Positions 1 to 2,860 of a stretch of DNA of 2,860 nucleotides are shown piece by piece. Numbering within the stretch: the first letter of the stretch is position 1; each line of letters opens with the position of its first letter. This stretch comes from Escherichia coli (GTDB taxonomy: Bacteria; Pseudomonadota; Gammaproteobacteria; Enterobacterales; Enterobacteriaceae), in assembly GCF_003334785.1 (NCBI RefSeq), contig NZ_QOWV01000055.1, one strand, 5' to 3'. Both the position numbers and the translations under genes were made by a program. The notes beneath the pieces were generated by a model. That model was not told where the DNA came from, did no database searches, and saw nothing but the letters and a program-made list of their open reading frames with translations.

Positions 1-81
<81 letters not shown>

Positions 82-865
82 AAGGGGTAAGCTGAAATCG
101 TTTATGGATTACATCGACATATGCCTGGCAGAGAATGTCCGGAATGACGAGGTTATCTTTGCGGAGATTAAGGCAATGGTATACGGGCCGACGTTCCATG
201 CCGCGTTACTACATTCAGCCCGGACGTAAAATGCGCCCGTCAAAAAGAACGGTTCGCTTCGAAACTCAGCCAGGATACCACCTCTCCGCCACACCCGGGA
301 AGAAGTTGATATGGTGGTTGCCGGACAACAGCGCTCCTGGATTGACTGCTGCATCACTCAACCACGCTGAATATCAAAGGAGAGCGTTACCGGTTAAAAG
401 AGAAACGTAAAGCTGTGGTGATGACCCAAAACGCAACGCCTGTCAGTGAGGATGAAATGGTGAAAAGCGGACAGCATCAGTAACGGAAGTATCTTAGCGG
501 GTACGAAAATGGCAGGATCGTGACATTGACAGAATATCTCCTGATCATCCTGAATGACTGCAGTTGCTGTAGAAAAGTAAGCTGTCTCCACCCACGGCAC
601 CACTTAACAGGCATTCCGTAACTTCCCCCAGACTTACTATGACGCATTATCGGTGCACTGAAAACGGGAGAGTGCGCTTAAAACCGCAGACCGCATGCGG
701 GTGTTACTGCATGACAGTCTGGCCGTATTGTGAGATGTCGGCAGGAACCGATGTCCGCGCAGGGGGGAACTTCCTGCAGTACCTGACGCTTCAAATGGTA
801 TTAACCGTAGGGTGTTGTTGGTTCCGGATCGCGGAAATGGGAGCACAGGTCTGCTACGGGGTGTA

Positions 866-958: not shown

Positions 959-986
959 TTGACAGACAGGCTACATTGCATACGAT
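959..986 (+). promoter_or_regulatory. Candidate sigma70-like promoter (TTGACA-N16-TACGAT)
   Basis: Perfect -35 hexamer TTGACA at 959-964, a 16-nt spacer, then TACGAT at 981-986 (4 of 6 matches to TATAAT). Prediction by eye only; -10-like hexamers are common by chance. Confidence 0.3.
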
Positions 987-1049
987 TTATGAAGAAAAAG
1001 ACAGCAAATATGGAGGTTATAGCGGAGAATACCCTACGAAATTCCTATG

Positions 1050-1100
1050 AAAAACGATTGAAAAAAATATCAAATTCGATTCGTTTTTATATGCTTTTTG
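1050..1100 (+). terminator. Weak candidate terminator-like hairpin (AT-rich stem, possibly bidirectional)
   Basis: AAAAACGA (1050-1057) pairs with TCGTTTTT (1081-1088), giving an 8-bp stem with a 23-nt loop, followed by ATATGCTTTTTGG. Only 2 of the 8 pairs are GC and the loop is large, so this is weak. Confidence 0.2.
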
Positions 1101-1303
1101 GGAGCGTGGCGATGACGAACTGTTGCATGTGCAGAGGAGAATGCACCCGGAAGCACCAGAATCATCCAGAAAGGCAGAACGATTACGCATCAAACCAGGA
1201 GACAGCAATATCAAGGTAATATACTGATTTAAAATGAATTTACAGCAATACATAAAAACATTTTTTACTTAAAGGAGACAGATGCGCTGAAGAGAGTGCA
1301 GGT

Positions 1304-1319: not shown

Positions 1320-1540
1320 GAGAAGTTTACGGGATGTGTATCCGGCACACTATGACCGGAGAATATCAGTCAAGCTTAAAAAGACAATAAATACAGTGAG
1401 TTAAATACACAGAGAAAACGTAGTATCAGAGGGTACATCTTACAACAGAGACTGAATTTCCGGTTTTTCATAACCGGCGCATTCCGGAAAGTGCAGGCGG
1501 CCCGGAGGTTTTCTGACGCCACTACCTGGTAGATTGTTCT

Positions 1541-1553
1541 GTACATCATGTAC
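1541..1553. repeat. Inverted repeat GTACAT-C-ATGTAC (6-1-6), operator-like
   Basis: Perfect 6-bp arms around a single central C, 48 nt upstream of GTG 1602. A second, CCTGG-centred inverted repeat CTACC-T-GGTAG lies at 1522-1532. Short inverted repeats of this size are expected by chance, so this is a sequence fact with uncertain function. Confidence 0.4.
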
Positions 1554-1601
1554 GGAGGTTTTTGTTTGCTTTTTTAAAATCTGCAAATGTGAGAAAAGCA
1601 G

Positions 1602-2765
1602 GTGAGGTGTATTGTGGGAAAGGAACTGGATGATATCTGCACCAGCTGTCCGTATATCGATGCTGTAAAACGGCACAAACAACAGCTCGGTGCCATAGAG
1701 GAATATACACAGTGGTTAAAAAAAGAACCACGGGCATCTTATTTTTTTCTGTTCCAGCTGTATACCCGCATTCACAATACATTTTTCTCCCAAAAGCAAC
1801 AACTCCCGTTCACTCCCGGTGGCACTCACTGCCCGGAACCTGATGTCACCCTTCGGGACTTAACGCTTTCCCCTGGCTACCACAGTGATTATGCCCCTCA
1901 ACCCATTCCGGAGATGGACAGTTCTGCTGTTGTTCCACCAACTAATGAAAACACCTCGCCTCCGGAAGATACTCCCGACAACACTCCGGCCGGAGGCAAT
2001 ACCGGACAAGCGGAAAAGACCAGAAACGCAGGACTCACACCCATTCCTGAAAAACGTTCAGGAATGCCCCCGGAACATCTGCGGTTTGCCACGGGGTTTC
2101 CATCGCAACCGAAGATTGCCGGTCCCAGAGAAAAGCCGATGCGCACCGTGCATCCGGATAAAATCTACCGTGAAATTATATGGTTCTGCTCCAGTTACCT
2201 GCTGAAATCCGGACCAGAGGCTACGAGGACGATTATCAACTCAGTATTCTCTGAATGGGCCAGCATAAACAATGATTACCCCTCCCCCTTTTCGTGGGTG
2301 GACAGCAGGGACAGTGAACAGTGTGACTGGTTATGGAACGCCATGCAGGTCCGGTGTGTGGGAACCCCGCTGAATCCCCTTACCCCGGAGCAGAAATACT
2401 GGTTTGCCTGCGCCACGTTTGATAACTGGGAGGGCTGGAATGAGCAACAGGTACAGTTTTTACTGGAAAGTAATCCCAGACGGAACAGAGCGAAGTTTAC
2501 GCAGGTCTCCTTCCAGGCCCCCAGGATTCAGCATAAAGCGATTCTTCTTGATGAGCTGAAAAGTGCCCGGGAGCAACAAAAAAGGCGTGATGAACGTGCT
2601 GATGGTTCCGTCCCTCTGAAACTGTCCGGAAAAATCCACAAACAGCTTGAAAGTATTGCCCGAAGTCGTGGTGTCCTCCCAAAAAAACTGCTGAATGAAA
2701 TGATTGAGCAGGCGTACCATGATTTGGTGGCAACCAGGCAGAACAGCCAAATCGATTCCAGATAA
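1602..2765 (+). CDS. Hypothetical protein, 387 aa (383 aa if the GTG at 1614 is the true start). By eye it has four parts: an N-terminal segment with a CxxC motif, a Pro/Thr/Asn-rich low-complexity linker, a Trp-rich central region, and a C-terminal ribbon-helix-helix-like motif. Family not recognised.
   Basis: Longest ORF in the window (1164 nt), stop TAA at 2763-2765, with a strong intrinsic terminator about 30 nt downstream. The sequence reads like a real protein rather than an off-frame translation. The frame opens after TGA 1590-1592; there is no in-frame ATG before codon 105 (1914), so a GTG start is inferred. GAGGT at 1604-1608 lies 5 nt before the GTG at 1614. Low-complexity linker roughly aa 91-186 (nt ~1872-2159). 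Trp-rich region aa ~190-300 (8 Trp, 4 Cys). C-terminal aa ~336-375 (nt ~2607-2726), SVPLKLSGKIHKQLESIARSRGVLPKKLLNEMIEQAYHDL, fits a strand / helix / Gly turn / helix pattern. Confidence 0.75.
   Translation: MRCIVGKELDDICTSCPYIDAVKRHKQQLGAIEEYTQWLKKEPRASYFFLFQLYTRIHNTFFSQKQQLPFTPGGTHCPEPDVTLRDLTLSPGYHSDYAPQPIPEMDSSAVVPPTNENTSPPEDTPDNTPAGGNTGQAEKTRNAGLTPIPEKRSGMPPEHLRFATGFPSQPKIAGPREKPMRTVHPDKIYREIIWFCSSYLLKSGPEATRTIINSVFSEWASINNDYPSPFSWVDSRDSEQCDWLWNAMQVRCVGTPLNPLTPEQKYWFACATFDNWEGWNEQQVQFLLESNPRRNRAKFTQVSFQAPRIQHKAILLDELKSAREQQKRRDERADGSVPLKLSGKIHKQLESIARSRGVLPKKLLNEMIEQAYHDLVATRQNSQIDSR
1604..1608 (+). promoter_or_regulatory. Putative Shine-Dalgarno (GAGGT) for the GTG at 1614
   Basis: GAGGT matches the core of the AGGAGGU consensus and sits 5 nt upstream of the in-frame GTG at 1614. 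The GTG at 1602, which the ORF track uses, has no SD at a workable spacing. Confidence 0.3.
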
Positions 2766-2793
2766 TTTCAGACAGATATTATTTCCGTGAATC

Positions 2794-2832
2794 CCCCGCC
2801 ACCTTTCCGGTGCGCGGGGTTTTGTCTTTTTT
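2794..2832 (+). terminator. Rho-independent terminator for the 1602..2765 CDS
   Basis: GC-rich hairpin: CCCCGCCACC (2794-2803) pairs with GGTGCGCGGGG (2809-2819), about 10 bp with one bulged C and a 5-nt loop TTTCC. It is followed directly by the T-tract TTTTGTCTTTTTT (2820-2832). Confidence 0.8.
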
Positions 2833-2860
2833 CACCGGGAATACATGTATGAATCCGTCT

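Follow-up and report, generated by a model that had tools for sequence, protein, structure and literature searches.

Ribbon-helix-helix (RHH) regulators of the Arc/MetJ/CopG type (e.g., CopG 2CPG, Mnt 1MNT, SvtR 2KEL) are usually 45-100 aa long, and their motif, about 45 aa in length, lies at the N-terminus or close to it. They act as dimers, which place a beta-ribbon in the major groove of the DNA, often on tandem phased repeats; some of them, the plasmid regulators CopG/RepB and CopB/RepA, control replication. RHH antitoxins (ParD/PrpA 7YCV, MazE4 5XE3, TacA 7ZG5, FitA 2BSQ) have the RHH domain at the N-terminus, a toxin-binding tail at the C-terminus and an adjoining toxin gene. MatP (PF06303 + PF17414; PDB 3VEA, 4D8J, 7NYW) is a protein of 150 aa encoded by a single-copy chromosomal gene, which in Escherichia coli K-12 lies between ycbZ and ompA; it recognises matS, a palindrome of 13 bp, and organises the terminus of the chromosome. 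To our knowledge, MatP occurs only in enteric and related Gammaproteobacteria.

Most E. coli genomes contain integrative islands of the CP4-44/CP4-57/SRL type, which carry Ag43, the toxin-antitoxin pairs CbtA/CbeA, antirestriction genes and a variable cargo of defence genes. As far as we know, their control is poorly understood beyond AlpA-driven excision. The AlpA/Vis/Rox regulators of P4-like and CP4-57-type islands share both the neighbourhood and the presumed task, control of a cryptic element, with the protein described here, which is encoded in a stretch of 2,860 nucleotides from E. coli (contig NZ_QOWV01000055.1; the window). AlpA, however, is a small winged-helix/HTH_17 protein (PF05930), whereas the island protein is an RHH protein of different fold and with no described role. 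We hold it to be somewhat more probable than the contrary that this island-backbone gene encodes a sequence-specific DNA-binding protein, proposed to be a dimeric regulator of the island control region. The features of the window are collected in Table 1.

Table 1. Features of the 2,860-nucleotide window; residue numbers are those of the 387-aa open reading frame that begins at position 1602.
Feature	Position	Strand	Basis or remark
IS21-family remnant, internally deleted	78..514	+	88% identical to IS21 istA/istB in >2,000 plasmids; PGAP pseudogene fragments
Candidate sigma-70-like promoter TTGACA-N16-TACGAT	959..986	+	Consensus scan, 10/12
Five 11-bp-phased CTAYGAA-like direct repeats, CTACGAAATTC CTATGAAAAAC GATTGAAAAAA ATATCAAATTC GATTCGTTTTT	1034..1088	+	Candidate operator or iteron array
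Hairpin with T-run, terminator- or attenuator-like	1537..1565	+	Terminator scan; about 50 nt 5' of the start codon
Shine-Dalgarno sequence GAGGTG	1603..1608	+	5 nt 5' of GTG 1614; read from the sequence; AGGTG kept in paralogues
CDS, 383 aa + stop (WP_000514100.1)	1614..2765	+	12 nt shorter at the 5' end than the frame first read
N-terminal helical repeat, motif WLKKxxRAxxFFLF	1632..1799	+	aa 11-66; partial duplicate of the core Trp motif
Pro/Thr-rich linker	1800..2153	+	aa 67-184; predicted disordered, poorly conserved
Trp-rich helical bundle (PSPFSW..QC.W.W..., ATFDNW)	2154..2522	+	aa 185-307
Long basic helix (HK.LLDELK.A..Q.KRR)	2523..2600	+	aa 308-333; putative equivalent of the MatP 'MKQTIRARRKRH' helix
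Ribbon-helix-helix motif	2607..2726	+	aa 336-375: strand VPLKLS, helix A 343-356, turn RG, helix B from 360
Conserved block AATTTCAGACAGATATTAT..CGTGAAT, then hairpin CCCCCGCCACC/GGTGCGCGGGG (2793-2819) and T-run	2766..2832	+	Terminator scan
Next gene, YeeP/YfjP-type GTPase	2849..2860 (start)	+	PGAP; conserved neighbour; frameshifted in this strain

In the original prediction, made from the letters of the window and a program-made list of its open reading frames, the frame at 1602..2765 (+; 387 aa) was taken for a gene. The gene is real, and intact homologues in many genera argue that it is not a chance open reading frame; its start had been placed 12 nt, or four residues, too far upstream. 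The conserved start codon is GTG 1614, on which PGAP agrees: the homologues begin with MEKELDD or MEKEPDD at the matching position, the codon is ATG in the diverged island L010, and in three paralogous islands a 5-bp indel between 1602 and 1614 breaks the longer frame. The gene had also been regarded as the only convincing one in the window, which does not hold in this form, since the window also contains the IS21-family remnant and the first codons of the GTPase gene.

The protein is not an orphan, as had been supposed, but belongs to a broad unnamed family of Gammaproteobacteria with at least 150 clusters at 50% identity and with full-length members in several genera. The query itself has no match in Pfam, NCBIfam, PADLOC or the PDB sequences, and none to the Pfam and NCBIfam models even at E<=10; its two PHROGs matches (E 0.058 and 0.11) were discarded as chance level. 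Literature searches with the accession, with yeeP/yfjP/ykfA and with 'MatP-like' found no paper mentioning it. The protein is an unstudied, conserved and unannotated backbone component of the islands. That the gene has been overlooked may be because CP4-44 of K-12 has lost it altogether.

The AlphaFold model is confident (pLDDT 80). The N-terminus carries a partial second copy of the Trp motif of the bundle, tethered by some 120 residues of disordered linker rich in Pro and Thr: aligned with the core by hhalign, the N-terminal segment gave a probability of 96.5% (E 7.4e-10), W38 and R44 are nearly invariant in the family alignment, and the helices at 19-66 have a pLDDT of 89-97. The linker had been described as Pro/Thr/Asn-rich and probably disordered over aa 91-186, and both composition (18-20% Pro in the linker; 20% Pro and 49% P+T+N+S+G for residues 91-186) and pLDDT (<50 over 84-137, low across 62-184) bear this out. 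No part of the gene is less conserved; nucleotide identity between paralogues is about 50% here. The unusually Trp-rich region reported before is a conserved domain: eight of the nine Trp of the protein fall within aa 190-290, and W219, W232, W243, W245, D274 and W276 are conserved across 103 relatives (pLDDT 90-97). In the basic helix, which is a helix over 308-333 in the model and aligns with MatP 64-80, Q325 and R329 are nearly invariant.

The C-terminal 45 or so residues form a ribbon-helix-helix, as the original prediction had proposed for roughly the last 40. The segment VPLKLS-GKIHKQLESIARSRG-VLPKKLLNEMIEQAY fits the pattern of strand, helix A, turn and helix B, which is also kept in homologues at about 30% identity; L341, L349, A353 and I368 are conserved across the 103 relatives, the last three of them nearly invariant. 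Searched against the PDB, the C-terminal family profile found almost only RHH proteins, in register and with E 0.007-0.07, namely SvtR (0.0068), pRN1 ORF56, CopG, HP0222, MatP, Mnt, MazE7 and Reg576. Although the query itself stays below threshold for every curated RHH model (Pfam RHH_1, RHH_3, RepB-RCR_reg), single family members match RHH_1 (9.7e-5), RHH_3 (9.1e-5) and RepB-RCR_reg (8.2e-6), and NCBIfam gave sub-threshold matches to RHH-type regulators. The AlphaFold model superposes on RHH domains at 1.5-3.4 A and has their three-dimensional fold. In the single-chain model the strand segment is coil, as expected for an RHH strand that is unpaired in the monomer. The likeness to Arc/MetJ/CopG regulators extends to the motif of about 45 aa, to the hydrophobic pattern and turn in register and to the fold matches; it should be noted, however, that in the island protein the RHH domain ends a large multidomain chain.

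The tightest superpositions are those with RHH domains of type II antitoxins (ParD/PrpA, MazE4, TacA, FitA, MazE9), and a YeeP-type GTPase gene lies directly 3' of the gene in most islands. Both would suit an RHH domain that is mainly protein-binding and antitoxin-like and that neutralises or regulates the GTPase or another island protein, DNA binding being secondary. We regard this as extremely unlikely. Whereas antitoxins of this type have the RHH domain at the N-terminus of some 80-100 aa, here it is at the C-terminus of 383 aa, is not followed by a toxin-binding tail and has no toxin gene adjoining; the neighbours are the GTPase gene and a non-coding leader, and PADLOC found nothing. Members from Serratia and Psychrobacter have no GTPase gene adjoining, and in island L009 an insertion separates the two genes. 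Moreover, the basic helix (K+R 21%) points to nucleic-acid binding.

The best PDB match of the full-length family profile is MatP, collinear over residues 10-140. When aa 186-387 were aligned with MatP alignments by hhalign, probabilities of 92.3% and 90.2% (E 5.5e-7 and 1.5e-6) were obtained, as compared with <=0.2% for reversed and <=1.9% for 30 column-shuffled controls, and swapping the order of the MatP domains lowered the score from 42 to 28. The bundle alone is only weakly similar to MatP (probability 20-31%) and aligns to the N-terminal bundle of MatP inside the collinear match. With 14-16% identity the relationship is remote. Indeed, none of 103 family members matches the Pfam model of the MatP N-domain (PF06303), two or three of the 103 touch MatP_C (PF17414) with E 0.004-0.03, and the NCBIfam MatP model gave no match. 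A first search for MatP homologues had returned near-identical E. coli sequences only and was of no use as a profile; with a single MatP sequence, hhalign aligned the RHH domain alone (29% probability), and this comparison was set aside.

Bundle, basic helix and RHH domain together appear to be a module collinear with MatP, minus the C-terminal coiled coil: the chain stops some 12 residues past the RHH core, at residue 387, without a counterpart to MatP residues 136-150. Among the MatP domains, whose roles have been described, the coiled coil is important for protein-protein recognition (PMC12756933). The island protein further differs from MatP in its length of 383 aa, in its extra N-terminal repeat and disordered linker and in being island-borne. 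In its C-terminal half it seems to be a remote cousin of MatP. If so, the family comprises the first distant MatP relatives outside the core genome and bears on the origin of the Ter-organising system. It is conceivable, if rather unlikely, that the island family is the branch of the MatP lineage that lives on mobile elements. MatP would then have been domesticated from a DNA-binding protein of such an island, or the islands would have captured a MatP-like module and elaborated it; in the strongest form of this proposal, the island protein would mark island DNA through matS-like repeats of its own and interact with chromosome-organising machinery of the host such as MukBEF, and would so affect compaction, silencing or segregation of the island, beyond simple repression. 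A search of the window for matS itself gave one site with two mismatches, which is chance level (reached in 50/200 shuffles).

The gene is part of the syntenic backbone of CP4-44/CP4-57-type integrative islands, which comprises AlpA, a YfjJ/Gp2-like Rep, the YeeP GTPase, DUF932, antirestriction, RadC and CbtA/CbeA genes. It had been thought to stand alone, whereas its place, next to the AlpA/YfjJ module and leading the string of genes from the GTPase to CbtA, is kept even where the proteins are only about 30% identical, a synteny that spans E. coli to Citrobacter, Serratia and Psychrobacter. Horizontal acquisition, as already proposed, follows from its position within an integrative island flanked by IS elements. 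The 3' part of the IS21 remnant is common to paralogous islands, and the window aligns to L009 and L006 from positions 179 and 323 onward, respectively.

PIMEs, AlpA-bearing mobilisable elements with trbJ/trbL/repA (bioRxiv 10.64898/2026.01.12.698999), were considered as a description of the island and rejected as a different element family. They bear on the idea that the protein assists a relaxosome in the manner of TraY, TraM or NikA; it would bend an oriT for the relaxase of a helper plasmid, by which the island would be mobilised. We consider this very improbable, because the characterised PIMEs differ in gene set and contain no such protein, because TraM scores no better than the RHH domains of antitoxins, and because neither a relaxase nor a T4SS gene, a coupling protein or a recognisable oriT was found in the eight loci examined.

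The state of the island could mean that the gene is a decaying relic without current function in this E. coli lineage, the island having been degraded by IS elements and frameshifts. The GTPase and cbtA genes are frameshifted, IS100 and IS21 remnants lie just upstream, many shortened copies of the gene are found among database sequences and, as mentioned, the gene has disappeared from CP4-44 of K-12. Among E. coli paralogues, dN/dS is moderately below 1 (0.50-0.73 overall; 0.62-0.78 for the linker) and about 1 for the C-terminus in comparison with L009; values of 0.5-0.7 among E. coli copies suggest relaxed constraint. There is nevertheless but a small chance that the gene is a relic, since core and RHH domain are 88-99% conserved between paralogues, full-length homologues occur across genera, and, among 5,426 complete E. 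coli genomes, the approximately 1,950 with at least 80% of the window have the reading frame intact. This alternative also concerns the present activity of the protein, not its identity.

The long non-coding leader noted earlier is present as a gene-free region of about 1.1 kb. An 86-aa open reading frame within it (959-1219) is probably non-coding, since both L009 and L010 have a 2-bp indel that disrupts it. The most conserved non-coding block, at about 900-1200, holds the promoter candidate, of which both hexamers are kept in each of the four E. coli-type islands, even in the diverged L010. Downstream of this site follow the CTAYGAA-like repeats. In each of six loci (the window, L006, L009, L010, L002 and L004) they are the top-scoring phased array of the whole locus, always upstream of the gene and on its strand. 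Their score was reached by 0/200 shuffles in four loci and by 3/200 and 18/200 in the other two, the motif having been derived from two of the six scored loci, the window and L002. In the control region of L002 and L004, apart from the array, no other block near the gene is conserved; the distant loci of Serratia and Psychrobacter lack the array. The best candidate site consists of direct 11-bp-phased repeats rather than of an inverted repeat, and judged from its conservation in both island types near a promoter-like site, the array is the best candidate for the site of the protein.

The protein probably controls the island's own genes. In analogy to all RHH proteins, two chains would each give a strand to a two-stranded ribbon for reading the major groove, and the basic helix and bundle may add flanking DNA contacts as in MatP. 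The dimer would bind repeated sites in the island control region, most plausibly the CTAYGAA array, and could from there act as a regulator of its own transcription, of the downstream operon and/or of the alpA-yfjJ module.

The same repeats with their A-tracts resemble iterons, and an array that is origin-like would be bound by an origin- or iteron-binding accessory or copy-control factor of the excised island, acting together with, or controlling, YfjJ/YagK, an inovirus Gp2-like rolling-circle Rep; alternatively, the protein would compact or segregate the excised circle like MatP or ParG. This is unlikely in our view, yet deserves to be kept in mind. In the remotest members a wide intergenic region lies between the gene and the YagK_YfjJ (REP_ORF2-G2P-like) gene, which it faces, the commonest sub-threshold Pfam/NCBIfam matches are RepB-RCR_reg and PRK13702 ('replication regulatory protein RepA'), and MatP, the closest solved relative, organises DNA and is no transcription factor. 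However, replication of the island is only putative, in E. coli-type islands some 4 kb separate yfjJ from the gene, with which alpA shares its strand, and an array downstream of a promoter-like site suits an operator equally well. The missing coiled coil, which in MatP is important for protein-protein recognition (PMC12756933), also speaks against this reading. For the regulator of the island control region that we prefer, the RHH domain with its MatP-like module makes the protein a concrete candidate, and the 11-bp-phased repeats are a specific candidate for its DNA site. Should it turn out to be an ordinary autorepressor, several thousand 'hypothetical proteins' would gain a useful annotation, and this would be no surprise.

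Two hairpins frame the gene. The stem at 1537-1565 is kept in L010 through two compensatory pairs, and an alternative pairing over the Shine-Dalgarno sequence and start codon is possible, judging from four sequences. Rfam gave no match at E<=1 on the whole window, and so the leader belongs to no described RNA family. On the other side, the original prediction saw the gene's own terminator: a hairpin with a T-run does follow the stop codon, but the block to which it belongs is conserved across islands and remains with the GTPase gene in L009, where the insertion separates the two genes. The block is 87% identical in the Citrobacter locus L002, though the proteins are only about 30% identical, and the stem of its hairpin shows compensatory changes in L002 and L004. 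It is an intrinsic terminator or else an element in the leader of the GTPase gene.

A search of the upstream regions for over-represented 7-8-mers gave nothing convincing. CAGACAG is enriched in every island locus, a 7-mer chosen after the fact that has no extended flanks and that other 7-mers almost equal in frequency in L010. In the collection of complete genomes, a median of three places per genome match some part of the window, the IS21-family remnant being counted too.

The gene at 1614-2765 (plus strand) encodes a predicted ribbon-helix-helix (RHH) protein; it also has an internal repeat, a disordered tether and what is probably a MatP-like module. A very common family of islands conserves this protein, which has so far gone without annotation. 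The query has no match in Pfam, NCBIfam, PADLOC or PDB sequences, and its matches in PHROGs are at chance level. A word-indexed search returned close E. coli copies and homologues of 27-32% identity in Citrobacter and Cronobacter, and a profile built from the sequences of these three groups and run against 1.84 billion cluster representatives found 150 proteins at E <= 0.001, of which 46 are at E <= 1e-10. The protein is thus not the orphan of the original prediction, though its relatives are unnamed: all members that bear a name, from Enterobacterales to Psychrobacter, are labelled "hypothetical protein". Family members are mostly 280-390 aa long and match the Trp-rich core plus the C-terminus. 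Nearly invariant in 103 full-length members are W38, R44, W232, W243, Q325, R329, L349 and I368 (residues numbered from position 1602). The Pro/Thr-rich segment had rightly been taken for a disordered linker: it contains 18-20% Pro, is poorly kept between relatives and is predicted to be disordered.

The RHH assignment of the C-terminus also stands. When the C-terminal ~80 residues of 61 diverse members were made into a profile and searched against the PDB, the matches were SvtR, pRN1 ORF56, CopG, HP0222, MatP, CopG-family regulators, Mnt, MazE7 and Reg576; almost all are RHH proteins, with strand, helix A and helix B in register. It should be noted that these matches are individually weak (E 0.007-0.5). 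Single family members match Pfam RHH_1 (9.7e-5), RHH_3 (9.1e-5) and RepB-RCR_reg (down to 8.2e-6) as well as MatP_C, RHH_7 and RHH_10, and, below threshold in NCBIfam, an IncFII "RepA" regulator and the LexA-regulated protein model PRK11675. The protein is very likely an RHH DNA-binding protein.

The top PDB match of the full-length family profile is MatP, the organiser of the chromosome terminus, collinear over MatP residues 10-140; the family motif QC.WAW.YL is aligned to ECGWKWAYL of MatP, and mkKAWsQKK.R to MKQTIRARRKRH, with the RHH following. Because the E-value of this match is just 0.014, the link was tested further by local hhalign. Residues 186-387 align with a three-genus MatP alignment over 115 columns (probability 92.3%, E 5.5e-7) and with 108 MatP sequences from many Enterobacterales genera (90.2%, E 1.5e-6). 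In control runs the probability does not exceed 0.2% with the reversed MatP alignment or 1.9% in 30 column shuffles. If the order of the two MatP domains is swapped, the score falls from 42 to 28 and only the basic helix and the RHH remain aligned. The C-terminal half is therefore probably a MatP-like module. Since the island-borne protein lacks the coiled coil of MatP and is 2.5 times longer, only the module is named "MatP-like" and the protein is kept outside the MatP family. The N-terminal helices (aa ~11-57, WLKK..RA..FFLF) duplicate the Trp motif of the core (aa ~210-251; hhalign probability 96.5%, E 7.4e-10), so that the order from N to C is repeat 1, disordered linker of ~120 residues, repeat 2 (the helical bundle), basic helix and RHH. 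In the MatP database entry P0174 (197 aa) residues ~38-84 are tandemly duplicated, perhaps through an error of assembly or annotation.

The open reading frame 1602-2765 appears in a mechanical ORF list and is a gene as predicted, but its start is not at 1602: in the alignment to three paralogous islands of E. coli, an indel of 5 bp falls between 1602 and 1614, homologue starts map to 1614 (ATG in one) behind the Shine-Dalgarno sequence GAGGTG, and PGAP uses 1614, too (WP_000514100.1, 383 aa). Comparison with the paralogous islands L006, L009 and L010 shows a mosaic gene, with 88-99% identity (dS 0.08-0.23) in the 3' half (core and RHH, 2100-2760) and 50-80% (dS 0.22-0.78) in the 5' half with the linker (1614-2100). 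Such a pattern suggests that islands have recombined or undergone gene conversion with one another, or that the 3' half is constrained at the nucleotide level. Among E. coli copies dN/dS is 0.5-0.73, which suggests relaxed constraint, and the copy under study may be decaying.

The window is E. coli chromosomal DNA matched at 100% by many complete genomes, and at least 80% of it is present in 1,948 of 5,426 genomes. The gene lies in an integrative island adjoining yeeA/tmaR, and the horizontal origin proposed for it holds. The annotated island locus (L001) carries, in order, two zinc-ribbon proteins and an "inovirus Gp2 family" (YfjJ/YagK-like) protein; an AlpA-type HTH protein and a 200-aa ORF; IS100 and an IS21 remnant; the gene under study and a YeeP-type GTPase gene; dynamin/RdcB/patatin genes; and DUF932, antirestriction, YeeS (RadC), YeeT, CbeA/CbtA and YeeW. 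The gene does not stand alone, as had been thought, for homologues of 30% identity retain these neighbours: AlpA and the ~200-aa ORF, divergent across ~500 bp, the family gene, the GTPase, and downstream DUF932, antirestriction, RadC and CbeA/CbtA. In the E. coli-type islands L006, L009 and L010 the gene shares its strand with the alpA module and has ~1.6 kb of non-coding DNA ahead of it, and in the Citrobacter-type islands L002 and L004 the module is divergent. The two island types must accordingly differ by an inverted or rearranged control region. K-12 CP4-44 (L013, MG1655 2,066,020-2,072,500) has lost the family gene; its yeeP, which follows IS5/IS2 scars, is reduced to a truncated pseudogene, and the small RNA IsrC lies between yeeP and flu. 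The recently described PIME elements are a separate family.

In the region L001 10190-12483/window 1-514, a complete IS100 ends ~10 bp ahead of the window; the IS21-family remnant is internally deleted and, since its 3' part is common to paralogous islands, old. A site on the upstream side of an OLD-family nuclease gene in the Citrobacter locus matches positions 4-77 at 85%. The dynamin family, RdcB family and patatin-like phospholipase genes sit between the GTPase and the DUF932/antirestriction genes; other islands have Ag43 in or beside this slot. The cluster looks like variable cargo and is possibly a defence system.

Features in and beside the window
Feature	Position	Remark
IS21-family remnant	78-514	
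Promoter-like candidate TTGACA-N16-TACGAT	959-986	kept in all four E. coli-type islands
Five CTAYGAA-like units, 11-bp spacing	1034-1088	candidate site
Hairpin and T-run	1537-1565	~50 nt ahead of start codon; conserved, compensatory changes
YeeP-type GTPase gene	from 2849	frameshifted
Dynamin/RdcB/patatin cluster	L001 15938-20303	downstream of window

The best conserved non-coding stretch upstream is ~900-1200 (94-98% identity to L006/L009), and in the Citrobacter-type control region an array of the same CTAYGAA-like kind is all that is strongly conserved close to the gene. When six loci of the two island types were scanned over their whole length for four phased units, the best score fell upstream of the gene in each, at homologous places: -571 to -599 for one island type and -151 to -155 for the other. 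In four loci none of 200 shuffles scored as high as the real sequence; 3 of 200 did so in a fifth and 18 of 200 in the sixth. Since the motif was derived from the window and L002, these two are not independent tests.

Beyond the fold assignment, domain architecture, family and synteny, which the comparisons establish, a tentative reading is that the protein regulates transcription of its island. It would dimerise through the RHH, and ribbon, basic helix and bundle would read DNA by analogy with MatP on matS (for the MatP domain roles see PMC12756933). Its targets would lie in the island control region, with the phased array as prime candidate, and by binding there it would control the operon to which it belongs and/or the alpA-yfjJ module. 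The strongest competing reading gives it a part, together with the Gp2-like Rep, at an origin or iterons or in copy control, or else has it organise the DNA of the excised circle in the manner of MatP/ParG. In Serratia and Psychrobacter 0.45-1.1 kb separate the family gene from a YagK/YfjJ (Gp2/Rep-like) gene that faces it, AlpA being near in both and an integrase adjoining in Psychrobacter; the GTPase gene is absent beside the family gene in these loci, and the locus scan found no array there. A relaxosome-accessory or antitoxin-like role is less likely because neither a relaxase nor a cognate toxin is adjacent.

For 1512-1625, RNAalifold of four paralogues predicts a conserved hairpin (1539-1556), a further stem made by the T-run, and long-range pairing of ~1512-1528 with the Shine-Dalgarno/start-codon region (three compensatory pairs; four sequences are too few to judge). 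This folding could be a translational or transcriptional attenuator. The best conserved block of the leader coincides in part with an 86-aa ORF (959-1219, plus strand; TTG start, further ATG codons inside at 989 and 1010). The conservation of the block is probably not protein-coding, because a 2-bp indel near 1098 breaks the frame in L009 and L010.

Behind the stop codon there is indeed a hairpin with T-run, but what had been called the gene's own terminator is a conserved island element: the block 2766-2832 (L002 11140-11217, L009 12954-13059) is conserved far beyond the flanking genes, with 87% identity in Citrobacter versus ~30% between the proteins and compensatory changes in its stem, and in L009, where an insertion parts the gene from the GTPase gene, it remains with the latter. 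The block may serve the YeeP-type GTPase gene, as its leader or as a regulatory element, no less than it terminates the gene under study. The heptamer CAGACAG occurs in both conserved flanking blocks (963-969 and 2769-2775). It is enriched in every island locus (L001, L002, L006, L010) over dinucleotide shuffles, none of which matched the observed count (12 versus 1.0 expected in L010, 8-9 versus 2-3 elsewhere); it was selected post hoc, shows no consensus beyond the seven bases, and in L010 some other 7-mers come close to its frequency.
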